Source of the DNA: Pseudomonadota bacterium
GTDB taxonomy: Bacteria > Pseudomonadota > Gammaproteobacteria > Xanthomonadales > Rhodanobacteraceae
Direction of reading: 5' to 3'
Assembly: GCA_023430685.1 (NCBI GenBank)
Contig: JAEYZH010000024.1
Location: 1,372-65,371, forward strand
Length of the DNA stretch: 64,000 bases
Each line of letters opens with the position of its first letter. Positions within the stretch are counted from its first letter, which is position 1. The position numbers and the translations under genes are program-made. This document shows positions 4,036 through 56,321 of the stretch, piece after piece. Under the pieces are notes generated by a model, which made no database searches, was not told the DNA's origin, and saw only the letters and a list, made by a program, of their open reading frames with translations.

Positions 4036-4051
4036 CGAGGCAGTCGTCGCT

Positions 4052-5989: not shown

Positions 5990-6032
5990 GCGCGCATGGT
6001 ACGGGACTGGCGAGCCGCGCGCGCCTTCGCGC

Positions 6033-8293: not shown

Positions 8294-8384
8294 GCGCGAA
8301 GGATATGCACGCCGACATCAGGAACTGAGACGGTCGGGACGCGGGACAGGATCCGTGGTTACAATCCATAGACAGGAGGGAGCA

Positions 8385-8750: not shown

Positions 8751-8795
8751 GCTCGCAGCCTTTGGGCTCCAAGGTCGAAGCGACCACGCGATCAC

Positions 8796-9158
8796 GTGGC
8801 TATTCCGCGGCTCATAGCTCTCACCGGCAGGCTCGGAATTGCCTTGGCAACCGTCGTAGTTGTCGGAGCGCTGCTGACCATCTCGCTCCGAGGGTGCGTC
8901 GCCGATGTACGCCAAGCGTTCACCGACGACGAGGATGAGCCGGACGTGGTGGTGGACTACTGTGACAGCGATTGCGCAGCGGAGGCAGCTGGCGAACTCT
9001 TCATGAACCGCGAATACGAATCGGCCATGACCGAATGCCAACACCGGGGGCCGGCCTTCACACTTGGCTGCACCAACTTTGTTTCTGAGCTCGAGGAGCC
9101 AGAAGTCCTCGATCGGCCCACCGCTGACGAAGAAGACGCGAGGCCATATTGGCGCTGA
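8796..9158 (+). CDS. Hypothetical membrane-anchored acidic protein at the prophage edge
   Basis: GTG start and N-terminal hydrophobic segment LGIALATVVVVGALLTISL. The region is locally lower in GC than both flanks. Convergent with the giant virion gene. No motif recognised. Confidence 0.3.
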   Translation: MAIPRLIALTGRLGIALATVVVVGALLTISLRGCVADVRQAFTDDEDEPDVVVDYCDSDCAAEAAGELFMNREYESAMTECQHRGPAFTLGCTNFVSELEEPEVLDRPTADEEDARPYWR

Positions 9159-9181
9159 CGTCGAGTGCGAACCGACGCGAA

Positions 9182-34706: not shown

Positions 34707-36758
34707 TTACGCGGCTTCGCGGAACAGCGCGTGATCGACGCCGCCGGCGGGATTGCCAGCAGCGTCGACGGCGCCCGGTTGTCCGGGCTGCTGGCCAGGC
34801 GTGCCGAGCATCATGGTTGCCTGCCGCTGCTGCGCCAGCATTTCGTCCTTCGACGGCAGAATGTCGTCGGGGTTGAGGTCGAGCGCCTTGATCGTTTCGC
34901 GCAGGAGCGCCGCGCGTCCCATAGGTCCGAGGATCGGCGCATCGATCGCGTTCGCCGTAGCCTGCAGGAACTGGGTGCGGCGCAGTTGCTGCTGCTCCTT
35001 CGCGACCAGCGAAGCAGCGCCGCGCGCCTGCAGCTGCGCATCGCCCTTCACGTCGGGGTTCGGGTCGAACAGCATGATGTGCGTGTGCACGCGGTTGAGG
35101 CTGCCTTCGATCACGCGGTCGATCGCGGCGATGACCCGCTTGATCTGGCGCGAGCTCGCGGTCATCAACATCGACAGGCCGGACGCGGTGCCAGCCGCTC
35201 CCGTCGTCGGATTGACGCCCTGCTCGTAGCTCGGGATGCCGCTGTAGTTGTCGGCCAGCTGCGCGAAGTAGCCGTAGACCTTCATCAGCACGTCGACCAC
35301 CGACTGCGGATTGTGGAACCGCACCGCCGGCGACGGCGTCGTTTTGCTCGACTTCGTCTGGAAGATGCGCCACGGGTAGAGCTGAGTCACGTCCTCGCCG
35401 GACGCGAGACGATCGACCTCGACCTCGATCATCGGACCGGATGCGATGCCCATGTTGTTGCACAGTGCGCGCGCGCAGGCGTTGCAGATGTTCTGCAGGT
35501 CGCGGATGAGGCGCGGCAGGCCACGGCCCCAGAACTGGCCTTTGATCGAATCGAAGCTCGCCTTCATGTACGGCCGGCGGCGCAGCGGGTCTTCGTTGAG
35601 CACGCACCGCACGATGAACCGGCCGACCTTCAGGCAGGTAACCTCGTAGTCGGCATCGGCATCGGGAACCTGCGCCGCCTCCATGCCCCACTCGAGCAGC
35701 CATTCGCCGCGCACGGAGCCGTGGAACTCGAGCGCGTCGATCGTGCCGTCCGGCGACATCTGCCAGTTGCGCGACCGCTCCAGCTCTCGGCGCTGCTGGT
35801 CGCCGGCGATCGCCAGGTCGTACCCACTGCGCTGATATTCCTCGAGGGCCGCACGGATTTTCTGCTCGTCGTAGCCGGGGACACCGATCATCGAGAAGAG
35901 CGCCGACCGGCGCAGCGGAATGCGTTCGAACAGGTAGCCGTCGTCAATGTCGCGGCTGTCGGGCGCCGGGTAGATGTCGAGCACCGATGGCGAGTAGAAC
36001 ATCGGCACGAGCTCGTCCTCGGCCTGCGGCACCGACTTCCCGGTCTTCGGATCGGGCACCCAGGTCAGGCGGCGATTCTTGCGGATTACAGGCCCTTTGA
36101 GGATGCCGGCCGGCAGCGCGACGAGATCGGGGATCATGTCCTCCATCGCGTCGTACCACGCGCCCTCGACCAGCACGTCGTCGATGGCATCTTCCATGCG
36201 CTGCGCGCGGATCTTCGCTTCGTCGCGCATGCGCTGCTGGATCTGGTCGTAGAGCGACCGCGCGCGCTCGTACACCGCTTCTGGCGTCACGAACAGGCCC
36301 GCCTGAATCGCCTGCTCGAGTTCGATCATGGTGCGCTGGTAGATGCCGGCCTTGAGTTCCTGCGGCAGGTCATCGGGCACCGGCGTCGGCTTCACCGTGA
36401 AGGGACGCTCGCCGGCGGGCAGCAGGATGTCGCGAATCCAGCCCTCCGCGGCGCGGCACTTCACGTTGGTCAGCAGCATGTAGACCTCGCTGCCGCCCTG
36501 CTTCCTGATCTCCGCGAGCTTCGTCGGCGAGTAAATGCCCTCGCGCTGCCGCAGGTCCTCGAGCATGTCCGGCTCGATCTGCGACTCCTTCGCGGAGCGC
36601 GCAGCCTCCCAGCAGTTCGCGATGTAGCTGTCGAGACGGCTGAGCAGGTTCTGGTAGGGATCGTTACCGGGCGACGGCGCAGACGTCGGAGCGCCAGGCG
36701 CCGCGTCGCGCTTCGCCGACTGGACCTGCTTCAGGATCTCTTCGAGTAGCCCAGGCAT
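34707..36758 (-). CDS. Portal protein (683 aa)
   Basis: Size and position (first gene of the head module downstream of terL) support the call. AGGAAG lies 8 nt upstream of the ATG at 36758. Confidence 0.8.
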   Translation of the reverse strand: MPGLLEEILKQVQSAKRDAAPGAPTSAPSPGNDPYQNLLSRLDSYIANCWEAARSAKESQIEPDMLEDLRQREGIYSPTKLAEIRKQGGSEVYMLLTNVKCRAAEGWIRDILLPAGERPFTVKPTPVPDDLPQELKAGIYQRTMIELEQAIQAGLFVTPEAVYERARSLYDQIQQRMRDEAKIRAQRMEDAIDDVLVEGAWYDAMEDMIPDLVALPAGILKGPVIRKNRRLTWVPDPKTGKSVPQAEDELVPMFYSPSVLDIYPAPDSRDIDDGYLFERIPLRRSALFSMIGVPGYDEQKIRAALEEYQRSGYDLAIAGDQQRRELERSRNWQMSPDGTIDALEFHGSVRGEWLLEWGMEAAQVPDADADYEVTCLKVGRFIVRCVLNEDPLRRRPYMKASFDSIKGQFWGRGLPRLIRDLQNICNACARALCNNMGIASGPMIEVEVDRLASGEDVTQLYPWRIFQTKSSKTTPSPAVRFHNPQSVVDVLMKVYGYFAQLADNYSGIPSYEQGVNPTTGAAGTASGLSMLMTASSRQIKRVIAAIDRVIEGSLNRVHTHIMLFDPNPDVKGDAQLQARGAASLVAKEQQQLRRTQFLQATANAIDAPILGPMGRAALLRETIKALDLNPDDILPSKDEMLAQQRQATMMLGTPGQQPGQPGAVDAAGNPAGGVDHALFREAA

Positions 36759-37226
36759 TGCGTGCGCTTCCTGCTCATGTTCACTGAACTTGCTGCCGTG
36801 TCTACCCTCTCACCAGTGGGCAGAACAGTGAAGTTAATTCCGGCTCGACAGTCCACATGCCGTAAGACTTTTCCTATTTTCCTGTAAGACATTTCCTACA
36901 AGCCACCCGGCATGCCTTCAATCTCCAGCTGGAGCAATCGAGCGACACCGCGCTGCACAATGACACCGCGTGTCGCATTTGATACAGGACAATCGGCGGA
37001 GGGCGCGCTGTTCGCGCCGGGGACTCTCAGTTCTCATTGACGTCGACGCACTTTGCGTGGCCTACCACGGAGTGCCGCACGTGCCCGCCCATCCTCAACA
37101 GTCTTGAACTCGGCTGGTCGATCTTCGGCGGGCGCGATTCGACGTACTCGGACACAACTCCTTCGCCGTTCTGGCGCGCCACTGCGTGCGGCGCTCCGCT
37201 TACGCCATCTGAGAGGGGAACTCGAT

Positions 37227-38222
37227 ATGTGCAGTATTCGGATCCGGCTTTTTGTTCTATCCATGCTCATCTACGGGTGGGCAACAACCTGTCTTGGGCA
37301 AGGCGCAGAGCCTCCTCCGCAAGCATCACAAGAAGTGTGCGCATCGGAGGAGGCGGCACTGCTGGATGTTCAAAATAGATACAAACCAATCATGGATTCT
37401 TTGGAGAAACGGGGGGCTGCCATCAGCGAAGAAGGGGACGAAACCAGCCTACTGCGGGTCGATCTCGTGTGGCGGGAAGAGAGATGGGTTTTCGACCTTC
37501 CAACGGTAAGCATGAAGACGAAAGACATGAGCCTCGACTTACCCCAGTTTTCAATGCGAAGGAAAGATATGTCCTTTGACATCGTCGAAACCTTCATGGG
37601 CACCACTGATTGCGGCAAGTATCCCGAGTTCACATGCAGCGGCTTCAAGTGTAGGGTGAAGTGGTCGGTTATACGTTGCGACCTCCCGCAGACCCGCAAG
37701 AAGCGCGTACGCATCTCGCTCGACGTCCCAGAAACCCGGTGGGATACGACCCATTTCTCGATGGATATCCCGGAGATCTCCATGCACAAACAAGAATGGA
37801 CGTTCAAGCTTCCGGACAAGGTGACTGTTGAGACCCTGGATGAACAAGTCGCGGAGATCAAGCTCAAAGGAGACGCGCTGAAGAGCGAGTCCGAAGCGGT
37901 TGTGCAAGCAATGCAGAAGGAGGTGACAGAGAGGACCAGTAGCATGCTGACCTGCCGCCGTCAGGACCTTCTCTCAAAACGATCCGGCGTCGCGTCTCAG
38001 TTCGACGCCGCGATTGCACAGTTCGATACATCGATCCAGATGATCACCGCTCAAGGGGGCAATCCGCGCGCAGTCATCAATGATCAAAAGGTCAGCGTCG
38101 ACATGCTCGCGGCAAAAGACGAATTGGTCAGGAACAAGGAGCGATCGATGGCTGAGTTTGATGCCGCGTTGAAGTCATTGGATGACGCCTCCACGAAGTC
38201 GCTGCAGGCCGTAGCCGGATAG
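37227..38222 (+). CDS. Secreted repeat-containing protein (331 aa), low-GC moron on the opposite strand
   Basis: ATG at 37227 after GAGAGGGGAA. Signal peptide MCSIRIRLFVLSMLIYGWATTCLG. About 13-aa repeats FDLPTVSMKTKDMS / LDLPQFSMRRKDMS / MDIPEISMHKQEWT, and a coiled-coil C-terminal half. GC is visibly lower than the flanks. Confidence 0.75.
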   Translation: MCSIRIRLFVLSMLIYGWATTCLGQGAEPPPQASQEVCASEEAALLDVQNRYKPIMDSLEKRGAAISEEGDETSLLRVDLVWREERWVFDLPTVSMKTKDMSLDLPQFSMRRKDMSFDIVETFMGTTDCGKYPEFTCSGFKCRVKWSVIRCDLPQTRKKRVRISLDVPETRWDTTHFSMDIPEISMHKQEWTFKLPDKVTVETLDEQVAEIKLKGDALKSESEAVVQAMQKEVTERTSSMLTCRRQDLLSKRSGVASQFDAAIAQFDTSIQMITAQGGNPRAVINDQKVSVDMLAAKDELVRNKERSMAEFDAALKSLDDASTKSLQAVAG

Positions 38223-38257
38223 TTCTTTCCAACGCGTTACCCTCCATAGTGCTTTCG

Positions 38258-38282
38258 GGGCCCAAGTCCAAAGCTTGGGCCC
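38258..38282. terminator. Stem-loop between convergent genes (terminator-like, no U-tract)
   Basis: GGGCCCAAG-tccaaag-CTTGGGCCC, a 9-bp perfect stem, lies between the stop of 37227..38222 (+) and the stop of terL (-). Confidence 0.4.
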
Positions 38283-38301
38283 TCTCGTGCCGAGTGATCG
38301 C

Positions 38302-39750
38302 CTAGGTCCACCCTGCCGCGCTGCGCTGCTTCACGGTGCGCGCGACGGCCGTCGGCGCCACCACGTTGCCGGCCCACGCCGCCTGGCAGGTGTGCTGGTG
38401 CGCATCGTGCGGATGCGAGAACCGGTTCTTCTCTGGCGCTTCCTTGTAGCGCTCGTCGCCCGACACGTTGAGCTTCGCGTAGCGATAGCCACCGAGGAAT
38501 CCGCGGCGCAGGTAGGTGCACTTCGGCGACAGCAGGTATCCCGGCTGGCCGTCGATCGTCGACTTCAGGAAGCGGATCACCGCGTCCTGGCGCGCAGCTG
38601 GATCGTTGGTCGGCGCCTCCTGCGTCGGGATGCCTTCCTCAGCCTGGATGTCCATGCACGAGGTCTCTTCGCCCTGCCCCTTCGCCGCGCCGGCCGGATC
38701 GCCCCACGACAGTCCGATGGGCATGCCGACGTAGTTCGCAGCGAGGTGCGGCTTCACGATCTCGCGCGTGAAGGTGCGGATCCCCATGCCCTCGCCGGCG
38801 GCGTCGACGACAAGCTCGTCGATCACGCGGAGCTGACCCTTCGGCGTCATTTGCGCGATCACGCAGGCGGGCGTGCGGCCGTAGTCCCAGCCCAGCAGCA
38901 GCGGCAAGCCGCGCCACGGCTCGAGGATGTCCGGCGCGCAGTGGATCGAATCGACGTACTCGGGGAACACGACGCGGCCGTCGAGCACGGTGCCGTACTG
39001 GCCAAGGATGTAGACCTTGATCCACTCGTCGGTTTTGCCCGGCAGCTGACGGAGCCAGTACTCGTAGCCCAGCTCGTGGTTCTGCACGTTCTCCGCGGCA
39101 GGGTTTGGCACGTAATCGGCCGGGCCGCGCTTGATGAGCGCCGGCGGCTGCGCCCAGAACTCGAAACCCTTCGGCCGCTCTTCCTCGGCGAGTCGATACC
39201 ACCAGTGGATGTCATCCGGCGGATTGGTGTCCATGATGACGCCGGACCAGGACGCGCCGCCGTCGCGCTTCGACGGATAGCGTCCGACGCGGCCCATCGC
39301 GGCGTCGATCACCGCCTTCGGGATTTCCTTCGCCTCGTTGATCCAGACGCCGGTCAGCTCCAGGGACAGCAGCTTCTTCACGTCCTTCGGGCGGTCCAGC
39401 GCGATGAACAGTATCTCGAGGTCGATGTCGCGCAGGCGAAGGCGACCGCGGATCGGCGCGTCGTACACGATCGGGCAGATGTCGTCCGGGAACCAGTCCT
39501 GCCAGGTCTTGATCGTGGTCGACTTCAGCTCCGCGTAGGTGTTGCGCACGATCGCCCAGCGACTGCGCCGGATGCCGCCCTTTCCCGGGCGCTGCTCGGC
39601 AGCGCGCCGGAACACTTCGACGCAGCAGCCGACCGACTTGCCCGAGCCGATCGGGCCGCGAATGCCGCGCACGAAGGCATTCGACGCGTGAAACCGCGCC
39701 AGCGTCGGCGATGCCGTGTAGTCGATGTGGATGGGGGTGAGCGCGGTCAC
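38302..39750 (-). CDS. terL: Terminase large subunit
   Basis: Walker A GPIGSGKS, then ...VWINEAKE (Walker B-like) and a C-terminal nuclease region. The GTG start overlaps the terS stop (GTGA). Confidence 0.9.
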   Translation of the reverse strand: MTALTPIHIDYTASPTLARFHASNAFVRGIRGPIGSGKSVGCCVEVFRRAAEQRPGKGGIRRSRWAIVRNTYAELKSTTIKTWQDWFPDDICPIVYDAPIRGRLRLRDIDLEILFIALDRPKDVKKLLSLELTGVWINEAKEIPKAVIDAAMGRVGRYPSKRDGGASWSGVIMDTNPPDDIHWWYRLAEEERPKGFEFWAQPPALIKRGPADYVPNPAAENVQNHELGYEYWLRQLPGKTDEWIKVYILGQYGTVLDGRVVFPEYVDSIHCAPDILEPWRGLPLLLGWDYGRTPACVIAQMTPKGQLRVIDELVVDAAGEGMGIRTFTREIVKPHLAANYVGMPIGLSWGDPAGAAKGQGEETSCMDIQAEEGIPTQEAPTNDPAARQDAVIRFLKSTIDGQPGYLLSPKCTYLRRGFLGGYRYAKLNVSGDERYKEAPEKNRFSHPHDAHQHTCQAAWAGNVVAPTAVARTVKQRSAAGWT

Positions 39751-40238
39751 TTGCCGGCGAGGTTCAGCGTGATGTTCACCGGCCGATCGGGGTCATTGGA
39801 CAGCTCGACCTTCTCGCGCCACTCGTCCTTCTGGCGGTTCTTCAGCCAGAAGATGCAGGCGACCGTGTCCGGCGGGTAGATCTCGGTGTACGGCACGATC
39901 ACCGGCTCGCCTTTGTCCTGCATGATCTTCACGGCCGGGTGCCGATAGCCGCACGCACGCTCGAACAGGCTGCGTACCACGCGAGCGTCAGCTTCGGCCT
40001 TCGCGGCTTTTAGGGCCTCCGAAAACTCGGGGTGCTCCTTCTTCCACAGGTTCAGGGTCGACTCGGCGATATCGAAGATGCGAGCGAGGTCGGCATCGGT
40101 CGCACCGAGGGGTGCAATCTCCTTGGCCATCCGGATGAACTCGGGGCGAAACGACGAAGGACGGCCGCCCGTCTTCGGTGCGGCCGCCTTCTTGTTCGCC
40201 CGGGCCTTCGCCGGTGCCGGCTTCTTGCGCGACGCCAC
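39747..40238 (-). CDS. terS: Terminase small subunit
   Basis: 163 aa with a basic N-terminus and the HTH-like segment ATDADLARIFDIAESTLNLWKKEHPEF. Sits immediately upstream of terL. Confidence 0.8.
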   Translation of the reverse strand: MASRKKPAPAKARANKKAAAPKTGGRPSSFRPEFIRMAKEIAPLGATDADLARIFDIAESTLNLWKKEHPEFSEALKAAKAEADARVVRSLFERACGYRHPAVKIMQDKGEPVIVPYTEIYPPDTVACIFWLKNRQKDEWREKVELSNDPDRPVNITLNLAGK

Positions 40239-40427: not shown

Positions 40428-40691
40428 CTACTCCGTGGGTTGCCCTGCCGCCCACTGGCGGAGGGATTCGAGCCTCGACCGCAGTTCGCGGAAGCCCGCG
40501 CGCAGGTCGAGGCGGTTGACCAGCTTCGCGCCGATCGTCTCGTTCTCCGGCACCGGCTCCGCGACATCGACCAGCAGGTCCGCCGGAGGCAGGACGCGTT
40601 CAGTCCGAACGGTCGGGATGCACTCCGGCGCCGGCTCCGGTCGCGGTGGCGACACCTGGCAGGCCGACAACGAAATCAGGCACGACAACAT
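40428..40691 (-). CDS. Outer-membrane spanin (Rz1-like lipoprotein)
   Basis: MLSCLISLSAC carries a lipobox (LSAC). The mature part is Pro-rich (QVSPPRPEPAPECIP). It overlaps the 3' end of the i-spanin gene in another frame (overlapped architecture). Confidence 0.75.
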   Translation of the reverse strand: MLSCLISLSACQVSPPRPEPAPECIPTVRTERVLPPADLLVDVAEPVPENETIGAKLVNRLDLRAGFRELRSRLESLRQWAAGQPTE

Positions 40692-41055
40692 CGAGGCAGC
40701 GAGCCAGATCCGGCTCGGCCTTTCGGCGCCACAGTTCGAGGTTCCGCTTCGCATCGCTCAGCTCCTTCTGGATCACCGCGCTGCGAGCCGCGGCGTTCCG
40801 GTTCACGTCCTCGCGCAACGCGAGTTCGCGCGCGTGGTCCCTCGCGGCCGTCTCGGCGTCCGCCTTCGCCCGCTCGGTCGCGGCGCGCGCTTCGTTGAGG
40901 TCCAGCACCAGATCGGTGCGGTCCTTCTCCATGCCGGCGACCTTCGTCTGCAGGGCATCGCGGTCCCGGAAGGCGCCGGCGATCGTGTCAACGCCGTACC
41001 AGGCGCCGAGGATCGCGACGATGGCGGCGATCGCGTAGGCGGCGAGCTTCGTCAT
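40600..41055 (-). CDS. Inner-membrane spanin (Rz-like)
   Basis: N-terminal TM MTKLAAYAIAAIVAILGAWYG followed by a charged coiled coil. The ATGA start overlaps the endolysin stop. Confidence 0.8.
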   Translation of the reverse strand: MTKLAAYAIAAIVAILGAWYGVDTIAGAFRDRDALQTKVAGMEKDRTDLVLDLNEARAATERAKADAETAARDHARELALREDVNRNAAARSAVIQKELSDAKRNLELWRRKAEPDLARCLDVVVPDFVVGLPGVATATGAGAGVHPDRSD

Positions 41056-41615
41056 GTCGTGGTCACTCCTGACTGCACGTTCGAGAAATCGGCGCGCTCG
41101 TACCGGCGGCGCGCCGCGTTGAATGCTTCGATCAGCTGGCCCATGCGGTGCTCGGGCTGGCCATACCCTGCACCCGGGAAGCTGGCCCAGATGCGCTTCG
41201 CTGCGACGATGGCGGCCTGCACGTCGCCGGCGTGCACCAATGGGAGCGAACCGCACTCCCGCAGTAGCTGGACGCAGGCGATGTCTTGGCTCTCCGGGCT
41301 GAAGTCGGGGAGCGAGAGCGCCGCGGCGAGAGCAGACCAGGTGCCACGCAGGAACTGGTAGCGCCCCGCGGCCGAAGATCGAACGACCTTGTCGGTGCCG
41401 TTCGCCGGATCCGCGAACTTCACCGGCACGACTTCGTTCGGGTGCGCGTCGTAGCCGGCAATCAGGCGGAGCCGTCCCGGGCGCGATCCGACCTGCACGT
41501 TGTAGCCGTCGTCGGACTCCGCGAGCATGCGCGGGCCAATCTCGCTGAACGCGATGGTGTCGAGCATGGCGCAGACGTTGGCGCCGCCTGCGCGCGCTAC
41601 CGAGATCCTGCACAT
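41052..41615 (-). CDS. Endolysin, lambda R-type lytic transglycosylase
   Basis: Aligns by eye with lambda R: LDTIAFSEIG (catalytic Glu), AAGRYQFLRGTW, FSPESQD, IWASFPGAGYGQPEH. Start set at ATG 41615 (GGAG 6 nt upstream). The track start at 41642 is GTG. Confidence 0.88.
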   Translation of the reverse strand: MCRISVARAGGANVCAMLDTIAFSEIGPRMLAESDDGYNVQVGSRPGRLRLIAGYDAHPNEVVPVKFADPANGTDKVVRSSAAGRYQFLRGTWSALAAALSLPDFSPESQDIACVQLLRECGSLPLVHAGDVQAAIVAAKRIWASFPGAGYGQPEHRMGQLIEAFNAARRRYERADFSNVQSGVTTT

Positions 41616-41671
41616 CGTCGGCTCCGAAACGGACCGCGCCACTCCGGCGCGATCCGCGGTCCAGGCCCGGC

Positions 41672-42884: not shown

Positions 42885-43038
42885 ATGGTTGCCTCGAAGA
42901 GCGGGCGGCCGTCCTTGGCCGATGGCGCGTCCTTGCGCTCACTTCGGCAGCTTATGGAGCGCGACTTCGGGCAATAAGTGAATTAGCGATTGAATTGTTG
43001 GATGATGCTGAACAACTGCATGGCCCGAGGTGTTCCGG

Positions 43039-43620
43039 ATGCCTCTTCAGGAAGATGAGCTGCGTACGTGTCTGGCGGCGGCCAACGAATCCTTACTCGC
43101 CATCCAGATTGCTTACGGTCGGGAGAATGCGCCCGAAGCGCGGATTCGATTTCCACGTGGGTGGATTCGAACCGCTGCTACTCTGCGGCAGACGCTCCCG
43201 AACATGGGGACACCACTTGAAAGGCGGAACGCGTCATACGCGCTTCTAGGTCTCGAGCCAATGCGATGGCTCGCCGTCAGAACGGACATTAGCAATGCAG
43301 CCCTCAGCATGATCGTGAAGCAAATGATCGCGATTCTTGGCTCACTGCTCGAATGGTTCGTACGAGTCCCAACTCGCGACAGAAGGGGCCGGCATAGCTT
43401 CAACAAGCGTTCTCAGATGCTGGTGGCGCTTGGAATATTCGACGAAGAACAGAAGGCTGAAATCGACTGGGTATGGTCCAAACGCAGTGTTGGCTTACAC
43501 CTGCACTTACCCATCGCCTTGGAACATGAAGGATATACTCGGGCCGACTGGAATCGGGCTGCCGCTGCGTATGTGAGCGCGCGGAAGTCACTCGTAGACC
43601 TCCACGGTAGTGCGCCTTAA
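43039..43620 (+). CDS. Low-GC moron: HEPN-like (Rx4H) protein, 193 aa
   Basis: ATG at 43039 is 6 nt after GAGGTG. The C-terminal LVALGIFDEEQKAEIDWVWSKRSVGLHLH resembles the helix plus Rx4-6H signature of HEPN/DUF4145-type proteins. Opposite strand to all neighbours, and its stop overlaps the Q stop (TTAA). Confidence 0.6.
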   Translation: MPLQEDELRTCLAAANESLLAIQIAYGRENAPEARIRFPRGWIRTAATLRQTLPNMGTPLERRNASYALLGLEPMRWLAVRTDISNAALSMIVKQMIAILGSLLEWFVRVPTRDRRGRHSFNKRSQMLVALGIFDEEQKAEIDWVWSKRSVGLHLHLPIALEHEGYTRADWNRAAAAYVSARKSLVDLHGSAP

Positions 43621-44078
43621 GGGGCCGCTTGGCGTCGCAGATTCGCCAGATAGGCCAATGTCGCTTGATATGCATTGTGCAGTCGGTCGCGGAAGTCATT
43701 CCGGTGGCATTCGCACTCACTCGCGCGCCAGCTCATGCTGTTGCGTCGCAACCCTGATCCCGCACACATCGGACAGATCGGTCCGACGTTCGCGACGAGG
43801 TCAATCCGACCAGTGCCGCGGCACACGGTGCACGCAGGCGCCGAGCTCATCTCGAGCAGGATTGCGCTGGCAATCCGGAAGTGCGTGCCGTTCCTGGACT
43901 TGCATCCGATCGCTCGCAGCATGCTGAGCGCCACGGCCGCGGCGTAGACATACGCGCGCCGCTCCGCAGTGTTCGCCGCGTCGTCACGCAATGGGCCATA
44001 GGCGTCCCACAGGTACGGCGTCGACAGACCTGAGCGATGCAGTTCCGCGAGATCAAGTCCAGGATCGACGGCGACCAT
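43617..44078 (-). CDS. Q: Late-gene antiterminator, lambda Q family
   Basis: CTVCRGTGRIDLVANVGPICPMCAGSGL matches the lambda Q CRDCHGTGRAVD...CGRCKGVGYSR zinc motif. Positioned directly upstream of the lysis cassette. Confidence 0.8.
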   Translation of the reverse strand: MVAVDPGLDLAELHRSGLSTPYLWDAYGPLRDDAANTAERRAYVYAAAVALSMLRAIGCKSRNGTHFRIASAILLEMSSAPACTVCRGTGRIDLVANVGPICPMCAGSGLRRNSMSWRASECECHRNDFRDRLHNAYQATLAYLANLRRQAAP

Positions 44079-46679: not shown

Positions 46680-47439
46680 GACTTCCTCCGAGCGCCGGCC
46701 GCGCGGAGTCTTGCTCCTTTGCCAGCCAGCGATTCACGAAACGCAGGATTCCTGCACGCGTCTTGCGATTGGTCGGATTGGCCACGCACCAGCCGCGCAT
46801 CGAGCGCAGCGCCTGGGAAACATCGACTGCGGGGTACAGGCCGGCGAACTCACGCGCCTGTTCCTCGGTGATGGGGTATTCACTGCCATCGTTCAGCGGC
46901 AGGCTGACGATCGGCGGCGGCGGCGTCCGAGCATCGGACGGCGCAAACGGCTTTTGCTCTTTCTCTGCTTCTGCTTCTGCTTCTGCTTCTGCTTGGGTCG
47001 GATCGCTTCGGTCTTTGTCGGACGTGTCGGACTTTGTCGGACTTTGTCGGACCGCTTTTCCCTGTCGGGCGTGGCCGCTTGGACGGTTCGCACGGTCCCA
47101 TTCCCGTTGTTGCTCGCGGCGAGTCTCTTCGTCGCGCGCATTGCGGTATGCGAGGTAATTTACGATCTGCCAGCCACCTTCTGAGGCGCGCAGGCGTCGA
47201 CCTTCGTCCTCTCGCGTGCGCGAGTACGGGTCAGGCGCCGTGAGGATCGCCAGGATCTGCTCAAGCCGTTCGATCGGCACCATGCACAGGTGCGCCATCG
47301 CTGGCACTGACGCGCGTACGTAGCCCGTCCGGTTGGCCTTGGCCAACATCGCAATCCAGACGCGCAGGACATCATGAGGCTGCATCCACAGCGTGGAGTC
47401 GACGATGCCACCGTCGAGCTTGGCAAAACTAATGCTCAT
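46558..47439 (-). CDS. Replication initiator (lambda O-like role), 293 aa
   Basis: N-terminal wHTH-like domain, a low-complexity linker (SDK/AEAEAE) that encodes the iterons, and C-terminal LPLNDGSEYPITEEQAREFAGLYPAVDVSQALRSMRGWCVANPTNRKT. The ATGA start at 47439 overlaps the upstream stop. Confidence 0.7.
   Translation of the reverse strand: MSISFAKLDGGIVDSTLWMQPHDVLRVWIAMLAKANRTGYVRASVPAMAHLCMVPIERLEQILAILTAPDPYSRTREDEGRRLRASEGGWQIVNYLAYRNARDEETRREQQREWDRANRPSGHARQGKAVRQSPTKSDTSDKDRSDPTQAEAEAEAEAEKEQKPFAPSDARTPPPPIVSLPLNDGSEYPITEEQAREFAGLYPAVDVSQALRSMRGWCVANPTNRKTRAGILRFVNRWLAKEQDSARPALGGSHATSNSGGKLSAVERVQAAIDERRKTEPVDIEGEATVLDP
46965..46994. repeat. Perfect hexamer microsatellite (CTGCTT)x5
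   Basis: Read directly: ctgctt repeated five times. It encodes the (AE)n stretch of the initiator on the minus strand. Confidence 0.95.
47016..47052. repeat. Four phased direct repeats TGTCGGAC (putative ori iterons)
   Basis: TGTCGGAC occurs at 47016, 47025, 47035 and 47045 (spacing 9/10/10 bp). Degenerate copies lie at 47063 (TGTCGGGC) and upstream (ATCGGAC 46934). Confidence 0.8.
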
Positions 47440-49058
47440 GGGTTGGCCACCAAGATCGAAACCTCGACTGACGTGCCCGGAAAGCGGAACACTTCGCCCC
47501 AACGCGTCGATAGGTTCGGCAGCAGGCGGCACTTGCGCGCCGACACCGGCAGGATGGCGACCAGTCGACCATCCGGCGCGAGCATCCCCGCCGCGTGGTC
47601 GAGGTGCGCTTGCCAGCGGCCTTCCGAGAACGGCGGGTTCATCACGATGCGGTCGTAGGTGGCGCCGCGGGGAACCTTCAGGAAGTCGGCTTTGATAGCG
47701 CTGAACCCGCGCGCGCGCAGCACTGCGGCATGGAGCGCGCTGACTTCGACGCATTCCACGTTCGCACCATCAGGGAACAGCGCGGCCAGGTTGCCGGTGC
47801 CGGCGCTCGGCTCGAGCCATCGATCGCCAGCGCCTGCCCCATCGACCGCGAGCGCGACCGCCTTCTCGGCGATGTCGGCCGGCGTCGGATAGAACTGGTG
47901 CGAGACAGCATCGGGAATGCACCCGAGGCACAGGATCTCGCTGATGACCTCGCCAGGCTCGTAGTCGAAGCGCCAGCCGTCGCCATCGGGAACGCCGCCG
48001 ATCGCGGCCAGAACTTCGTCCAGACGCTTGCGCTGGGCCTTGTCCGGCTTCGTCCCGTAGCCGAGCACCAGCTTCTGGCGATCGGTGCCGGTGCAAACGT
48101 GCTCGCCGCGGCGGTCCCTGCCCCACGACTTCTCCTGCTGCAGCTCACGCAGAAGGCCCAGCACCGCGAACGGCAGCGGCTGCTGCATCATGTTGAACTC
48201 GCGCGCCTTGCGCTTCGGCGGCTCGCGGAACTGCGATGGAATCGCGGCTGGATGCAAGCTGGCCAGCACCGCGTTGAGGCGCCAGGCCATGTCCGGGTGC
48301 ACCTCGAGGTGCGCGGTGCGTACGCCGGTGTAGACGCGCATGCGCAGCGCGCCGCCGTCGAACGTGACCCACTTGCCAGCACGTTCGGTGGCGACCCGGA
48401 TGGCGCGATCGCTGTCGCACCAGTGCGGCTCGTCGCGGCCCATGAAACGCGCGATCACGCAGCGCAGATCGTTGATCGTGCCGGCTTGGCGATGGTCCGG
48501 CGAATCGCCCCACTCGCTCAGCACGTAGGGAATGATCATGCGCTTGCCGAACCCTTCCGGCTGATTCGTGACGTGGGTCCGGCTCAGCGCCCGGAATATC
48601 CCGTCGACACGCTCGGCGAAGAACTTCGCGCGGCTCGACAGCAGGAAGTCGAAGGTCGCGGCGATGTTCTCTTTCGTGAACGGCGGCGTCTTGTGGTCGC
48701 GGATCTGTTCGTTCCACTCGTCCCGACGCGCCTGCGGCATGCAGTCGTAGACGTCGGTCAGCTTCATGGCCTTCGACCACAGATCCGCGTCGAGCGCCGC
48801 GATCGCGCTGGGCTCGTCGAGCAGTTCGGTTGCGCTGATGACGCCGCCGCGGTCGCGCCTCTTCACGTATGCGGCGTCAAGGAAGTAGTTCAGCGCGGTG
48901 CGCGCGCAATCGGTGAATCCGACGATCGCCTGGATCCGCTCGAGGACGCTTTCGCGGAACGACAGCAGGTGATCTAGCGCGCCCTCGGTGGAAGGCGCGC
49001 TAAATAGTTCAGCCACAACCAGCCTGTGGTCGCCCCCGCTGGAGTGCAAATTGGTCAC
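47436..49058 (-). CDS. Orphan N6-adenine DNA methyltransferase with a large N-terminal domain of unknown function
   Basis: The C-terminal third has FYPTP, LEPSAGTGNL (motif I) and IVMNPPF (motif IV). The ~370-aa N-terminal domain is unassigned. The GTG start at 49058 overlaps the upstream stop (GTGA). Confidence 0.8.
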   Translation of the reverse strand: MTNLHSSGGDHRLVVAELFSAPSTEGALDHLLSFRESVLERIQAIVGFTDCARTALNYFLDAAYVKRRDRGGVISATELLDEPSAIAALDADLWSKAMKLTDVYDCMPQARRDEWNEQIRDHKTPPFTKENIAATFDFLLSSRAKFFAERVDGIFRALSRTHVTNQPEGFGKRMIIPYVLSEWGDSPDHRQAGTINDLRCVIARFMGRDEPHWCDSDRAIRVATERAGKWVTFDGGALRMRVYTGVRTAHLEVHPDMAWRLNAVLASLHPAAIPSQFREPPKRKAREFNMMQQPLPFAVLGLLRELQQEKSWGRDRRGEHVCTGTDRQKLVLGYGTKPDKAQRKRLDEVLAAIGGVPDGDGWRFDYEPGEVISEILCLGCIPDAVSHQFYPTPADIAEKAVALAVDGAGAGDRWLEPSAGTGNLAALFPDGANVECVEVSALHAAVLRARGFSAIKADFLKVPRGATYDRIVMNPPFSEGRWQAHLDHAAGMLAPDGRLVAILPVSARKCRLLPNLSTRWGEVFRFPGTSVEVSILVANP

Positions 49059-49297
49059 TGCACAACCTCGAACCCTGATCGGAACACGCCGTCGGTAGTC
49101 GTGTCGGTCCACTCCACCAGCATCGAGCCGCCGGAGTACTGCCAGCGAGTCAGCACGCCCGCCGACTCGAAGGGCCCCGGGTAGGCGTGCTGCACGATCA
49201 GCACCTGCGCGGTTTCACGTGGAGCGTCGGGCGCTGCTGCGAACAGCGCAGTGAGCGCGACAGCCGCCGCGGCGCGGATTGCCAGGTCACCCAACAT
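49055..49297 (-). CDS. Small secreted/periplasmic protein (80 aa)
   Basis: Signal-like MLGDLAIRAAAAVALTALFAAAPDAP. GGAGGA lies 7 nt upstream of the ATG at 49297. Confidence 0.5.
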   Translation of the reverse strand: MLGDLAIRAAAAVALTALFAAAPDAPRETAQVLIVQHAYPGPFESAGVLTRWQYSGGSMLVEWTDTTTDGVFRSGFEVVQ

Positions 49298-50223: not shown

Positions 50224-51990
50224 TCACGCCGCGCACCTCGCGTCCACGTGCGTGTGGTCGAGGTTCGCGCGCGCGATCGCGCACAGCGGCGGCGGGCTCA
50301 CGCTGTTGCCGACCATCTTCACGGCGCGCGTGCCGGTAATCGGGCGTCCATCGGCGGTGCGGTCGATGATGTAGTCGGCCGGGAAGCCCTGCGCGCGGTA
50401 CAGCTCGGGCGGGCGCAGCATGCGCAGGCCGATGTCGACGATCACGTAGGGCGTGCCCTTGATCGTGACCGTGACCAGGGCGAGGCGATCGCGGGTGGTC
50501 ACCGTGTCGAGCGGGTCGCGGCAGTCGAGCGGCTGGCCGTTGCCGTAGTAGTTCACGAGGAACGCGGCAACGCGCAGCGCGCCGGCCTCCGCTTCGGGAC
50601 TCAGCGTGCACTCGACGACCGCGTGGTGCTCGCCACCGGCGCTGATGGTGTGCAGCGGGTCGGCGACGTCGGCGCAATGGCTGGTGCCGCGCAGCTTCGC
50701 CATGTGGGCGGTCACCAGCTGCTGCTGGCTGCCCTTCCCCACGATCGTGCTGACCGGCTCGCGCATGTCGCGTGGTCGCGAGGGGTTGCTGTTCGGGCCG
50801 CCAGCGGCCTGCTCGAGGTAGGCCATCACGATGCCGGCGCCGTTGCCGGTCGGCACGATGGTCGGCATCGGCTCGTCGGCGGCGAGAGCGCGCGGCTCCT
50901 GCCCTTCCCGCTCGCCGTACCGCGGCACCAGCGCCGCGGCGGCGAGCGCGAAATGCCCACCCTTCACGTTGGCGCATTGCGTGCGCAGTGGCTCGTCTGC
51001 CGACCAAGTCGCGCCGCGCGACGCGTTGGCGAACTCGGTCAGGAAGAATGGCTCGGCCGCATCGATCACGTACCGCTTCACGCCGCGCGCGATGCGGCGC
51101 AGCGTCGCCTCCGCGAGGGGCTTCTTGCGGGTGAAGATCGACGGGCACTCGATCGACCAGTCGATGCAGTCGGCCGCGGTGACGTAGGGCTGCGCGCGAC
51201 CCGGGCCGTGCGTCGGCTGGGGCCAGCGGATCGCCTCGCCATCGCAGCGCGCGACCATGAACAGGCGCGTGCGGCTCGTGCCGGCGCCGTGGTCGCAGGC
51301 CTTCACCTTGCGCCACTCCACGGCGTAGCCGAGGCTGCGCAGCGCCGCGACGAAGTGCCCCCACGTGCGACCCTCGTGGCGCTTGTCGGGGATCAGGTGT
51401 TGGTTATCGACCGGAACCCTCTCGCGCGCGTCGGCGACGCGATAGATCCAGTCGCCTGGCTTTGCTTCGGGGGACGGATCAGGGATCTCGTCCAGCGTCA
51501 CAACGCGACCGGTCGCGCGGTCGCGCTTCGCGATCAGCGGCCCCCACTTCAGGATTTGCTCGACGTTCTCGAGGCTGATGATGCGCGGGCGGACGGCGCC
51601 AGCCCACTTCAGCACCACCCACGAAAGCGACCGCGTTGCGCGGCTGCGCGGCTGGCCGCCCTTCGCCTGGCTGAAGTGCGTGCAGTCCGGCGATGCATGC
51701 AGCCAGCCGACATGCCGGCTTGCGCACTCGCGCCGCGGATCGGCGTGCCACACGTCCTCGCACAGGTGCCGCGCGAACGGATGGTTCGCCGCGTGCATCC
51801 CGATCGCCCACTCGTCGTGGTTGATGCAGATGTCCGGGTCGCGGCCAAGCGCCTGGCGCAGCGCCTCGCTCGCGCCGCCGCCCCCGGCGAACAGGTCGAC
51901 GACGATCTCGCCGGCGCGCAGCGCGCTGGTCAGTGCGCGCTCGGGGAAGTTAAACCCGGATTGCGGACGGGCGCGGGAACCGTCAGCCAC
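50224..51990 (-). CDS. Orphan DNA (cytosine-5) methyltransferase (588 aa)
   Basis: Motif I VVDLFAGGGGAS, motif IV HASPDCTHFSQAKGG, motif VI SLENVEQ, then RAQGFPADY and VGNSVSPP. GTG at 51990 lies 6 nt after AGGAGG. The track 5' extension to 52689 is rejected. Confidence 0.88.
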   Translation of the reverse strand: MADGSRARPQSGFNFPERALTSALRAGEIVVDLFAGGGGASEALRQALGRDPDICINHDEWAIGMHAANHPFARHLCEDVWHADPRRECASRHVGWLHASPDCTHFSQAKGGQPRSRATRSLSWVVLKWAGAVRPRIISLENVEQILKWGPLIAKRDRATGRVVTLDEIPDPSPEAKPGDWIYRVADARERVPVDNQHLIPDKRHEGRTWGHFVAALRSLGYAVEWRKVKACDHGAGTSRTRLFMVARCDGEAIRWPQPTHGPGRAQPYVTAADCIDWSIECPSIFTRKKPLAEATLRRIARGVKRYVIDAAEPFFLTEFANASRGATWSADEPLRTQCANVKGGHFALAAAALVPRYGEREGQEPRALAADEPMPTIVPTGNGAGIVMAYLEQAAGGPNSNPSRPRDMREPVSTIVGKGSQQQLVTAHMAKLRGTSHCADVADPLHTISAGGEHHAVVECTLSPEAEAGALRVAAFLVNYYGNGQPLDCRDPLDTVTTRDRLALVTVTIKGTPYVIVDIGLRMLRPPELYRAQGFPADYIIDRTADGRPITGTRAVKMVGNSVSPPPLCAIARANLDHTHVDARCAA

Positions 51991-52168
51991 GGCGTGCCTC
52001 CTGGAATGCCACGAGGCAGTCGTCACAGAAGCGCGCGCGCGCCCCATTCGGCAGCACCGCGCACGGCTCGCCGCATTCGCAGATGGTCGGCACGGGTTTG
52101 CGCACGGCGAGTGCGCGCGCGAGATCCGCGGCGATGAAGTCGGCTGCGTTGTCGGCGATGTCAGCCAT
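51983..52168 (-). CDS. Small Cys-containing (zinc-ribbon-like) protein (61 aa)
   Basis: GGGAG lies 7 nt upstream of the ATG at 52168. Contains ICECGEPC...FCDDC. Confidence 0.5.
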   Translation of the reverse strand: MADIADNAADFIAADLARALAVRKPVPTICECGEPCAVLPNGARARFCDDCLVAFQEARRG

Positions 52169-52499
52169 CGGTCGGCTCCCACGGTTCCGCGGAGCGGCCT
52201 GTCACGGCGCACTTCCGCTTCGGCATTCGGCGCACCGCGCCGGCGGTCTCGCATTCGCTGACGCGGCGGCCGAGCATGAAGCGGCAGTAGCCAGTCAGCT
52301 CGGCCAGTTCCTGCATCGTCCGACCCGGGAATGCGCGGATGGCGGCGATGGTCTGCGCTTGCTGCTGCGCGCGCGTGCCGGACGCCGTGACGTGTTCGGC
52401 CGCCTCGTGGGACGTTTCCGGATCGGTGTTGCGCGCGGCGGGCGTTTCCACGCGAATGAGCGGGCCGCGATACGCGAAGGAAAGGTCGAGCTGGTTCAT
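52161..52499 (-). CDS. Winged-helix DNA-binding protein (112 aa)
   Basis: RNTDPETSHEAAEHV...AIRAFPGRTMQELAELTGYCRFMLGRRVSECETAGAV is a pattern common in phage early regions. The ATGA start overlaps the upstream stop. Confidence 0.6.
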   Translation of the reverse strand: MNQLDLSFAYRGPLIRVETPAARNTDPETSHEAAEHVTASGTRAQQQAQTIAAIRAFPGRTMQELAELTGYCRFMLGRRVSECETAGAVRRMPKRKCAVTGRSAEPWEPTDG

Positions 52500-52912
52500 T
52501 GCGGCGCCCGCCCGAGAAGGTCGCGGATGGTGCGGCGCTCAATTTCCCGCTCGCGCTCCATCGTCTCGACCTGCTCGCGGAGTTCGCGGTTCTCGCGTTC
52601 GACGTCGCTTTCGATCCGGCGCAGGCTGCGCGGGTCATAGCCGCGGCGCAGGAGCCATGCATATAACGGCGCTTCGCAGCCGGTGGCATCCATGAGCGCG
52701 TTGAGTGCGTCTTCGTTGAGTCGCGCCTGGCCGAGTTTTGCCTTGCTCAAGACGGCGCTGTCGGCATCGATCTCGATGGCGATCGACTTGTCCTGCATGC
52801 CGCAGTTCTCGGTGCAGTAGCGCACCGCGGCGGCCTCGCTTTTCAGCTTGCGGAAGTCGGTCTCTGGGATCGCGCGTAGCGGGCGACGAACCCTCAATGG
52901 AAGGGCAGTCAC
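52496..52912 (-). CDS. CII-like / HTH regulatory protein candidate with a C-terminal coiled coil (138 aa)
   Basis: Position right after Cro and a terminator. HTH-like MQDKSIAIEIDADSAVLSKAKLGQ. GTG start. Confidence 0.45.
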   Translation of the reverse strand: MTALPLRVRRPLRAIPETDFRKLKSEAAAVRYCTENCGMQDKSIAIEIDADSAVLSKAKLGQARLNEDALNALMDATGCEAPLYAWLLRRGYDPRSLRRIESDVERENRELREQVETMEREREIERRTIRDLLGRAPQ

Positions 52913-54619: not shown

Positions 54620-55150
54620 TCACGCTGCGGCTCTATCGCGCTCGATCAGGATGGCATCGGCTGCCGCTTCAAGGCCGTAGTTCACGCCGCGCAGGCCTGC
54701 GACGACGGTCGCCGCCCAGTCGAAATATTCCCGCTTGCGCTGGGCCGGCCAGTCCGGCGGTGCGTGCACCAAGTCGCGCAGATTCGCGATCTTGTCGGCG
54801 AGCTTTACCAGCTTCGCCTCACGTGAAAGATGCGGCGCATGCTCGACCTGCAGATCCTTCCGACGCTGCTTCGGCAACGTCTTGTCGTCGGTGACCTCGA
54901 GCACGATCGACGCAACGGCATCGTCGAACTCGGAGCACAGCTCTTCGAAGGTGGTGTCCGTGTCCTCGATCGTGTCGTGGAGCAGCGCCGCCGCAAGCAC
55001 AATCGGATCGGAAACGCCGCCCTCTTCCACCAGGATGCGGGCGACCGTTATCGGATGGTTGATGTAGGGAGAGGCTGCAGCGTCCTTGCGACGCTGGTCA
55101 CGGTGCTTGTGGGCGGCGAAGGCCGCTGCACGAAGGACGATGCTGTCCAT
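54620..55150 (-). CDS. Small alarmone hydrolase, Mesh1/SpoT-type HD domain (176 aa)
   Basis: HKHRDQRRKD..PYINHP, AALLHDTIEDTDTT, EVTDDKTLPKQRRKDLQVEHAPHLSREAKLVKLADKIANLRD. This is co-linear with my recollection of metazoan MESH1/HDDC3 and bacterial SAH. Start set at MDSIVLRAAAF (ATG 55150). Confidence 0.85.
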   Translation of the reverse strand: MDSIVLRAAAFAAHKHRDQRRKDAAASPYINHPITVARILVEEGGVSDPIVLAAALLHDTIEDTDTTFEELCSEFDDAVASIVLEVTDDKTLPKQRRKDLQVEHAPHLSREAKLVKLADKIANLRDLVHAPPDWPAQRKREYFDWAATVVAGLRGVNYGLEAAADAILIERDRAAA

Positions 55151-55308
55151 GCGGCGAATCGTAGCAGAACTGGTGCACCGCAGTCGCGGCTTATGGGCTT
55201 CCCTTGCGGGCGCGGGTGCGCTGACTTGCGGTGCGTGATCAGTGTCGCAGCGACGATCCCGTAACGGCAGCGGCATTCGCCGCGCTGCGGCGTAGGAAAT
55301 CTCCGACA

Positions 55309-55340
55309 AGAAAAAGCCCCGCTTTGGCGGGGCTCGATTT
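55309..55340 (-). terminator. Rho-independent terminator after the 2-TM/DUF4760-like gene
   Basis: AGCCCCGC-caaa-GCGGGGCT followed by TTTTT on the minus strand. Partly T-rich on the plus side as well. Confidence 0.75.
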
Positions 55341-55427
55341 CTTCAGTCTAGTTTAGCGGCCGTCAAATCCGACCAGTCTGTTCGTTGGGGGTGTGTGTCA
55401 TTTGAGAGCTCCCTTTGGGCGACTCAC

Positions 55428-56171: not shown

Positions 56172-56321
56172 TCAGCCACGCCTCCCCTGTGATTAAGTGT
56201 TTCACGGTCCACGGACGCTGTCCAACCGCGTGCCGGAGGCAGCGCGCACGCACGTATAGCCATCCCGCTAGCAATTCTCGTGCCGCATCGACAGCCCGCC
56301 TCAACGCGGGCTCAGCGCTGC

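Follow-up and report, generated by a model that had tools for sequence, protein, structure and literature searches.

The 64,000-nucleotide stretch of DNA analysed here and called the window in the following (contig JAEYZH010000024.1 of assembly GCA_023430685.1, positions 1,372 to 65,371 of the forward strand, from a Pseudomonadota bacterium of the family Rhodanobacteraceae) contains an integrated prophage, which carries a foreign cassette of 1531 bp (36773-38303) between its genes for the large terminase subunit (terL) and the portal protein. Comparison with a sister phage revealed that this cassette replaced 918 bp of co-oriented cargo with native GC content. The gene of the cassette (37227-38222, plus strand) encodes a protein of 331 amino acids (aa) from an unnamed family, which is predicted to be exported and to consist of a three-helix bundle with one very long beta-hairpin. 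Taken together, the cassette replacement and the predicted fold can be regarded as very probable. The cassette belongs, as an element, to the morons and carries cargo of a new type, and it is the family of this cargo that constitutes its interesting part.

A low-GC unit on the opposite strand, which separates terminase and portal, had already been noticed in an earlier note made from the letters of this DNA, and its presence was confirmed. The unit is flanked on the left by the portal gene (34707-36758, minus strand; PF23899 SU10_portal, 7.8e-13; phrog_332/1216) and on the right by terL (38302-39750, minus strand; phrog_2, 1.5e-26), which is followed by the small terminase gene terS (39747-40238, minus strand; phrog_309, 9e-47). 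Over positions 36600-38300 the GC content is 0.52-0.59 vs. 0.65-0.69 on either side, which gives the cassette as a whole a GC content of ~0.55 vs. ~0.67. The moron gene itself has a GC content of 0.544 and a GC content at third codon positions (GC3) of 0.67, compared to 0.66-0.68 for the flanking genes and a GC3 of 0.88-0.90 for portal and terL.

The phage contigs of relatives (L021, L022, and L023) were reached via portal homologues in the protein database; searches of IMG/VR and the JGI metagenomes with exact peptide patterns found no close phage relatives. The nearest of the three, L021, has a portal protein that is 98% identical at the aa level, shares ~94% DNA identity with the window phage and is collinear with it on both sides of the cassette according to blastn. 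One aligned block (L021 398-5069, window 42938-38304) ends at the terL stop codon and the other (L021 5988-14052, window 36772-28694) starts upstream of the portal gene, 14 nt from its ATG, with no alignable sequence between the two blocks in blastn against the window. In L021, terL through portal form a single tightly packed operon, and the slot between these two genes (5071-5972; 918 bp, GC 0.674) holds a 58-aa open reading frame (ORF) and a 242-aa protein of phrog_1040 (“peptidase HslV family”), both co-oriented with their neighbours. A 168-aa ORF and a phrog_1040 protein, likewise co-oriented, are found in this slot in L022 (4993-5978; portal 72% identical). The slot is empty in L023 (portal 65% identical), where the portal gene follows terL after 25 nt, and in Roseobacter phage CRP-1 (portal 27% identical), where it follows after 10 nt. 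The proposal of the earlier note that a moron sits at the terL-portal junction is therefore strongly supported by the exact breakpoints against L021 and by the fact that terL abuts portal in a distant relative, and the junction is a variable cargo slot, or hotspot, in this phage group. This defines a cargo hotspot in the poorly studied temperate podophages with a portal of the SU10 type.

Since the phrog_1040 cargo is common to two relatives and has native GC content, it represents the older state of the slot, and the low-GC, reverse-oriented cassette of 1531 bp the derived one. As the phrog_1040 cargo is absent from both the window phage and L023, it is dispensable. Acquisition of the cassette looks recent, because its GC3 is well under that of the neighbouring genes. 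The three public copies of the window phage are identical. Searches for the donor of the cassette yielded no DNA-level match among plasmids and none to the cassette portion among phages, and the leader of the cassette shares nothing with the upstream regions of the family homologues.

The sole credible gene between portal and terL is the 331-codon frame at 37227-38222 on the plus strand, which is preceded by a Shine-Dalgarno-like sequence, GAGAGGGG, at 37211-37218 (plus strand), read directly from the sequence 8 nt 5′ of the ATG. Two other starts were considered and rejected. An in-frame TTG at 37053, giving a protein of 389 aa, would add an Arg-rich extension that precedes the signal peptide and is not shared by any homologue. 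In the public annotation (P0001, 37569-38222, 217 aa starting at M115) the signal peptide is missing, as is one half of the hairpin, although the N-terminal 114 residues are conserved in homologues. This short call has probably hidden the moron gene from earlier homology clustering.

Searches of Pfam, NCBIfam, PHROGs, PADLOC, and the PDB sequences yielded no match for the single protein or for 54 family members, apart from scattered coiled-coil noise. A word-index homology search recovered only two to four family members, and it took an HMMER scan run exhaustively over 1.84 billion representatives (clusters at 50% identity) to reveal the family, with 340 matches at E ≤ 1e-3, of which 206 reach E ≤ 1e-10 and 38 reach E ≤ 1e-30. 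Almost all of these align end to end over ~300-340 aa, the closest being 51% identical to the window protein, and members are named only “hypothetical protein”, for example in Bradyrhizobium, Sphingobium, and Grimontia indica. Matches in genomes were obtained for Sphingobium, Sphingomonas, Neorhizobium, and a metagenome-assembled genome (MAG) of the Rhodobacteraceae. The statement of the earlier note that no family can be recognised holds for the curated libraries; the protein is, however, not an orphan, since its family comprises at least 340 clusters (50% identity), the majority of them from bacterial chromosomes. The sensitive profile and structure searches that the note had called for found no curated family and no credible structural homologue. 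The cargo of this moron thus points to a sizeable unannotated bacterial family, in which the window protein keeps every family-invariant residue (P168, P182, the Cys pairs, G130, and P133).

The N-terminus of the window protein reads MCSIRIR-LFVLSMLIYGWATT-CLG and shows the n, h, and c regions of a Sec-type signal peptide without a lipobox. The signal peptide probably comprises aa 1-24 (MCSIRIRLFVLSMLIYGWATTCLG; 37227-37298, plus strand), with cleavage inferred after G24, and the confidence of the AlphaFold2 model described below falls at residues 21-25. A hydrophobic N-terminus is present in 91 of 135 relatives, and a transmembrane-like segment elsewhere in the sequence in only one of them. 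Cysteines co-vary in pairs: among 136 family sequences, both C38 and C243 are present in 88, only the first in none and only the second in one; for C137 and C142 the corresponding numbers are 69, five, and two, and for C129 and C151 nine, zero, and zero. These pairs and the Sec-type N-terminus strongly support the signal-peptide protein described in the earlier note. When signal peptide and the C38/C243 pair are considered together, 71 sequences have both, 20 have a signal peptide without the pair, 17 have the pair with a weak or truncated N-terminus, and 28 have neither. By its sequence features, the window protein can be assigned to the exported, disulfide-bonded type.

The fold was predicted with AlphaFold2 from an alignment of 54 sequences, and co-evolution as well as Cys pairing were checked independently on 136 family sequences. 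In the resulting model (predicted local distance difference test, pLDDT, 83.7; predicted template modelling score, pTM, 0.63) a signal helix at residues 5-17 is followed by helix H1 (39-72; 37341-37442, plus strand), two uninterrupted strands (78-138 and 141-201), and the helices H2 (205-275) and H3 (293-330), which together are encoded by 37839-38216 (plus strand). The strands form a two-stranded antiparallel beta-hairpin (aa 75-206; 37449-37844, plus strand) with its tip at aa 131-150 (37617-37676, plus strand). According to this prediction, the mature protein would be a disulfide-bonded, antiparallel three-helix bundle of ~34 kDa, stapled by a disulfide between C38, directly in front of H1, and C243 of H2, from which a free-standing two-stranded ribbon of ~60 residues per strand, ~18-20 nm long, would project. 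The mutual information between residues, corrected by the average product (APC), supports this arrangement, as nearly all top pairs lie on one antidiagonal, i+j=278, running from 80/199 to 136/142 (mean score of the ridge 0.167 vs. a background standard deviation of 0.043). Further antiparallel ridges connect H1 with H2 (i+j ~281-285) and H2 with H3 (i+j ~564), and coupling between hairpin and helices is weak. No second ridge between i+j 256 and 301, and no ridge pairing strand 1 with strand 1 or strand 2 with strand 2, was found among the 136 sequences, a number that gives limited power. AlphaFold2, residue co-evolution, and the co-varying cysteine pairs are three independent lines that agree on this architecture. 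The C-terminal half, which the earlier note had taken for a coiled coil, is indeed helical in the model and is packed with H1 as a bundle.

The hairpin is built from units of 14 aa, which start on the ascending strand at residues 75 (degenerate), 89, 103, and 117 and on the descending strand at 151, 165, 179, and 193, with the 20 residues of the tip between them. The repeat of ~13 aa announced in the earlier note is hence real and unusual, with the qualifications that its period is 14 aa and that the units form the two arms of one hairpin and no solenoid. The repeat prolines (92, 106, and 120 as well as 154, 168, 182, and 196) are spaced by exactly 14 residues and are conserved in 83-99% of the family. 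The proline, at position 4 of the unit, faces a conserved methionine at position 8 of the other strand, with which it pairs, and aspartate at position 2 is paired with an arginine or lysine of the other strand. At intervals of seven residues there are strongly hydrophobic rungs on alternating faces (87/191, 94/184, 101/177, 108/170, 115/163, 122/156, and 129/149). If the ribbon is twisted by ~180° per seven residues, these rungs would be aligned as one stripe, which would need burial through self-association or in contact with a partner. No other segment is as well conserved in the family as the tip (P133 98%, C137 92%, W146 75%, and I149 78%, flanked by G130 with 89%), which has a pLDDT of 92-94 and is polar and basic, without an alternating hydrophobic belt; the Cys pairing indicates staples between C137 and C142 and, in the window protein, additionally between C129 and C151.

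The h-x-h-x-h-P-x-h-x-h-x4 pattern of the 14-aa repeat resembles the repeat of the adenovirus fibre. In the triple beta-spirals of adenovirus fibre and reovirus sigma1, repeats of ~15 aa fold locally as strand-turn-strand within a trimer, without long-range antiparallel pairing. For the window protein a triple beta-spiral was rejected, as the co-evolution is that of a single long antiparallel hairpin, whose outermost repeats, 1 and 8, are paired with each other, as are repeats 2 and 7 and those further in, along i+j=278. Foldseek searches against PDB and BFVD yielded only analogies with template modelling (TM) scores of 0.07-0.15, all of which are long hairpins that build oligomeric tubes. The top matches were the lower collars of the phages Andhra, phi29, and P68 (8egr_I with E = 9e-5 and a probability of 0.90) and a lower collar protein in BFVD; further analogies comprised lysenin, aerolysin, the anthrax protective antigen (PA), the iota and CDT pores, and the FliF collar. 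These proteins share with the window protein a helical or globular body that bears a very long hairpin. They differ from it in that the window hairpin is roughly twice as long, is composed of exact 14-aa repeats with conserved prolines and gives no signal for an inter-subunit register.

Both classes of analogues suggest functions that have to be weighed. That lower collars are among the top matches, together with the position of the gene next to the portal, could be taken to mean that the protein is a virion or assembly component akin to a lower collar or adaptor. We consider this highly improbable, since the gene lies on the opposite strand, has foreign GC content and encodes a signal peptide and disulfides, is missing from the otherwise collinear sister phage L021, and has chromosomal homologues without phage neighbours; in addition, the TM-scores to the collars amount to only 0.10-0.15. 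Alignment of the family with phi29 gp11 by hhalign gave a probability of 0.03%, and on these grounds, together with the genetics, identity with a lower collar is effectively refuted. Alternatively, the protein may be a secreted pore-forming or membrane-active effector, with the amphipathic hairpins of several subunits forming a barrel or bundle directed against the membrane of a grazer, of a competitor or, on infection, of the host itself (abortive infection). Prophage-borne toxins are classic moron cargo, the best Foldseek analogies all have hairpins that form oligomeric barrels, and hydrophobic rungs recur along the hairpin of the window protein. Nevertheless, the low TM-scores (0.07-0.15), the lack of a second strand-pairing register in the co-evolution of the 136 sequences, which a barrel would need, the conserved prolines every 14 residues on both strands, and a polar, basic, disulfide-stapled tip that lacks an alternating hydrophobic belt make such an effector decidedly unlikely, and a beta-barrel oligomer is disfavoured.

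The moron concept goes back to Hendrix and Juhala, with gene 15 of HK97 as prototype. Morons are defined as extra DNA in comparison to close relatives, with an own promoter, an own terminator and expression from the repressed prophage, and HK97 gp15 is an example of a moron product with exclusion activity (Cumby, Davidson and Maxwell 2012, PMC3594210). The window cassette resembles morons in being extra DNA relative to close relatives between two late genes of an integrated prophage, with deviant GC content and a single gene followed by a stem-loop. It differs from them in that it replaced earlier cargo rather than adding DNA, in that it lies on the opposite strand, and in that consensus scans do not demonstrate a promoter or a terminator of its own, and its cargo shows no sequence relation to HK97 gp15 or any other known moron product. 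Envelope-level exclusion proteins of prophages include P1 Sim (exported), P22 SieA, T4 Imm/Sp, phi80 Cor, T5 Llp, and Ltp of TP-J34. With these the window protein would share, judging from its sequence, that a single prophage-borne gene encodes an envelope-targeted product; unlike them, it belongs neither to the lipoproteins nor to the membrane proteins, it has another size and fold, and there is no sequence similarity at the level of PHROG, Pfam, or PADLOC. Closer in its proposed mode of action is HxsA of the HXS defence system, a periplasmic repeat effector that blocks the entry of phage DNA (PMC13128918). HxsA contains His-x-Ser repeats and a peptidoglycan-binding domain and requires a pair of enzymes of the radical S-adenosylmethionine (rSAM) type as well as HxsD (PMC13128918). 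It shares with the window protein, which is probably periplasmic too, the signal peptide and the nature of a repeat protein and illustrates that the proposed mode of action exists; in contrast to HxsA, the window protein is encoded alone in its cassette, is built from 14-aa Pro/Met beta units, and comes without HxS repeats, a peptidoglycan-binding domain, hxsB/C, or hxsD.

Based on the logic of morons, the precedent of HxsA and the conflict-type contexts of relatives, we tentatively propose an envelope-level exclusion of superinfecting phages as the leading candidate, still less likely than not, for the function of the window protein. The moron gene would be transcribed in the lysogen from its own 454-nt upstream region, and the rod would be located in the periplasm, where it could interfere with a step of infection that crosses the envelope; this step would most likely be the delivery of the genomes of superinfecting phages. 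In this way the rod would be a single-gene exclusion factor that shields lysogen and prophage. The conserved tip would be the likely contact point, and the hydrophobic rungs might reflect self-association of the ribbon or a hydrophobic partner. Conflict-type contexts were found for three chromosomal or plasmid-borne relatives. The copy on a Bradyrhizobium chromosome lies beside a cyclase of a cyclic oligonucleotide-based antiphage signalling system (CBASS; 6.5e-64), a 4TM effector (1.4e-98), and IS630; a copy in a MAG has PDC-S42 adjacent (4.6e-113), DitA nearby (3e-52), and a resolvase; and the copy on the Agrobacterium plasmid pTiAF1_95 is accompanied by AbiJ-like (1.7e-17) and PD-T4-5/AbiD-like (7.6e-15) proteins, a zeta toxin, and IS110. 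A prophage context was found on the IMG/VR contig UViG_2878873491_000004 (L026), where a leaderless member (1829-2647) directly follows an integrase of the tyrosine type (PDB Int, 1.5e-7) and a short putative excisionase ORF, has a GC content of 0.37 vs. 0.45 for the locus, and has genes for a lambda-CI-like repressor (5e-9) and for a Ser/Thr kinase nearby; in its gene content, this locus is a classic example of the accessory regions of temperate phages. Overall, the GC content of the family gene is 0.03-0.12 under that of its flanks in nine of 13 loci, which fits frequent horizontal transfer.

Several observations weigh against an exclusion function. Most members of the family reside in ordinary chromosomal neighbourhoods, and the contexts with defence genes amount to a raw count of three out of about 11 informative ones. 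Not one of 50,697 INPHARED phage genomes contained the family in tblastn searches, pattern searches of IMG/VR produced the one clear contig mentioned above and one weak, partial match of 53 residues (L028), and neither a PADLOC model nor a known exclusion family matched the protein. The leaderless, cysteine-free fifth of the family (28 of 136 sequences) begins directly at helix H1, so that a periplasmic location is not intrinsic to the core activity. The gene of three Sphingomonas genomes has a native GC3 of 0.83-0.92 and is located between a TPR protein upstream and an SH3_3 protein downstream, a combination of codon usage and conserved neighbours that suggests a housekeeping role in the envelope there. 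No sigma-70-like promoter passed the consensus scan of the cassette; the sole plus-strand candidate, TCCACA-17-TATTTT at 36852-36880, is weak, with eight of 12 matches, and the stem-loop behind the gene is terminator-like but without a U-tract and was not called by the terminator scan.

Neighbourhoods of the Sphingomonas kind are what would be expected if the protein were a lysogenic-conversion factor of the envelope without any anti-phage role, a structural or adhesive part of the envelope such as a strut or spacer in the periplasm or a fibril on the surface. The prophage would then carry an additional copy for the benefit of its host, which would gain in stress tolerance, attachment, or the formation of biofilms. 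Among the relatives, single chromosomal genes with housekeeping neighbours are in the majority: in Sphingobium the neighbours are VWA/CoxE, AnmK, and TyrRS, on a Bacteroidota-like contig ATP synthase and MacB/FtsX, and in Grimontia metabolic genes. The gene is monocistronic everywhere, and no partner is conserved across lineages. The conserved residues, namely the Pro/Met pairs, the cross-strand salt bridges, and the disulfides, are moreover mostly structural, and the rod length in the AlphaFold2 model is on the scale of the periplasm. Such a factor would, however, leave the defence-island and integrase-proximal prophage contexts as well as the leaderless subfamily unexplained, and no anchoring motif (lipobox, transmembrane segment, or peptidoglycan-binding domain) is present in the protein, so that we regard this explanation as possible though somewhat doubtful. 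Even without a link to defence, the family would represent a new kind of rod-like envelope protein that merits structure determination.

The failure of the promoter scans is also of relevance for the question whether the cassette is a neutral or decaying passenger, which entered a permissive slot by illegitimate recombination and is unexpressed or useless in its host. Its acquisition is very recent, given a 94% identical sister without the cassette and a GC content that is not shifted toward that of the phage, and the identity of the three public copies means that they provide no evidence of selection. A mere passenger nevertheless seems unlikely, as the frame of 331 codons is intact, the family-invariant residues are all kept, the ribosome-binding site is good, and a stable stem-loop follows the gene. 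This GC-rich stem-loop (38257-38267/38273-38283) is located between the convergent stops of the moron gene and terL, 34 nt past the former, and has a folding energy of -23.1 kcal/mol (z = -3.2) on the plus strand and of -21.2 kcal/mol (z = -2.8) on the minus strand; with 11 bp instead of the 9 bp given in the earlier note, it is real and stronger than had been stated. A second structure proposed there, an imperfect hairpin closed by the 7-bp inverted repeat TTCACTG (36780-36786) and CAGTGAA (36826-36832) with a 39-nt loop, is present as sequence, but folds no better than shuffled DNA (z = -0.4 on the plus and -0.9 on the minus strand) and was dismissed. The direct repeats GTAAGAC(T/A)TTTCCTA at 36862-36876 and 36884-36898, which are 22 nt apart from start to start, are real and exceed what shuffled sequences yield, with the correction that the first had been placed one base early (36861). 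Allowing up to three mismatches, four matches were found vs. 0.49 expected, and none of 100 shuffles of the whole window reached four; the two leader copies are the only exact ones in the window. They bracket the -10 element of the plus-strand candidate promoter, a layout that would suit an operator. On the minus strand a weak candidate promoter, TAGACA-16-GAACAT, is found at 36804-36777, just upstream of the portal gene. If this candidate is inactive, the late transcript would have to cross the 11-bp stem-loop and the whole cassette in antisense. No Rfam match was obtained in the cassette region at E ≤ 1.

Returning to exclusion of superinfecting phages, a more far-reaching version would place the entire family in a new structural class of single-gene envelope barriers against phages, in which a three-helix base, a Pro/Met ribbon of ~20 nm, and a stapled tip block genome delivery across the periplasm. 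Its members would reside in defence islands of chromosomes, on a Ti plasmid and, in rare cases, in prophages as morons, and the leaderless subfamily would do an equivalent job from the cytoplasmic side. This generalisation is speculative and must be considered rather unlikely. If the associations with defence islands and prophages hold, the family would constitute a new single-gene defence at the level of the envelope. L021 and the window phage permit a direct comparison of lysogens with and without the moron gene.

The two phages, ~94% identical, differ by the base-exact swap at the terL-portal slot and by a second insertion at 42939-43632, which makes them a clean natural experiment. This second insertion is again of low GC content (0.53-0.58) and in opposite orientation, and L021 holds only 75 bp at the corresponding position. 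It contains an ORF of 196 aa (43030-43620, plus strand) without a match in Pfam, PHROG, or PADLOC, and is probably a second moron of the window phage. A third low-GC island (0.52) was noticed at 55251-56201, between leftward and rightward gene blocks. The ORF located there (55428-56171, minus strand, 247 aa) has a hydrophobic segment at its N-terminus and no PADLOC match, and an HD-domain protein (54620-55309; PF13328 HD_4) lies next to the island.

The left 8 kb of the window (1-8005) are host chromosome and comprise three tRNA genes, pgsA, uvrC, a gene for a thioredoxin-NHL protein, and one for a low-molecular-weight phosphatase. Given these host genes on its left flank, the phage is integrated. 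The tRNA-Leu gene (144-228) is followed by those for tRNA-Cys and tRNA-Gly; uvrC (4052-5989) was identified by its Pfam UvrC domains, pgsA (3475-4035) was named by its sequence and its position beside uvrC and not by a family scan, and in clusters of ≥90% identity the thioredoxin-NHL protein is grouped with those of Lysobacteraceae/Xanthomonadaceae and of Dokdonella MAGs. The host probably belongs to Dokdonella or else to another lineage of the Lysobacterales. The left end of the prophage lies somewhere within 8005-9182, and neither an att site nor an integrase was identified inside the window. In E. coli, the cluster of pgsA and the genes for tRNA-Gly, tRNA-Cys, and tRNA-Leu is usually compact. 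In the window two ORFs, 289-897 (minus strand) and 1725-2765 (minus strand; 346 aa, no Pfam or PHROG match), are found between tRNA-Leu and tRNA-Cys.

Among the remaining phage genes, the one at 9182-17992 (minus strand) encodes a giant virion-associated protein of 2936 aa, segments of which match an endolysin/transglycosylase (phrog_938), a DarB-like antirestriction protein (phrog_10089), and large PHROGs of unknown function; it is likely to be an ejected internal protein. Two large DNA methyltransferase genes, both on the minus strand (47436-49112, phrog_6263, 2.4e-168; 50224-52689, phrog_116, 2.3e-90), are presumably anti-restriction cargo. The lysis region (40428-40754 and 41052-41642, minus strand) is located upstream of terS and contains an endolysin gene (phrog_90, 1.4e-41) as well as an ORF of 108 aa, whose translation shows a lipobox-like LSAC motif and which may therefore encode a putative o-spanin.

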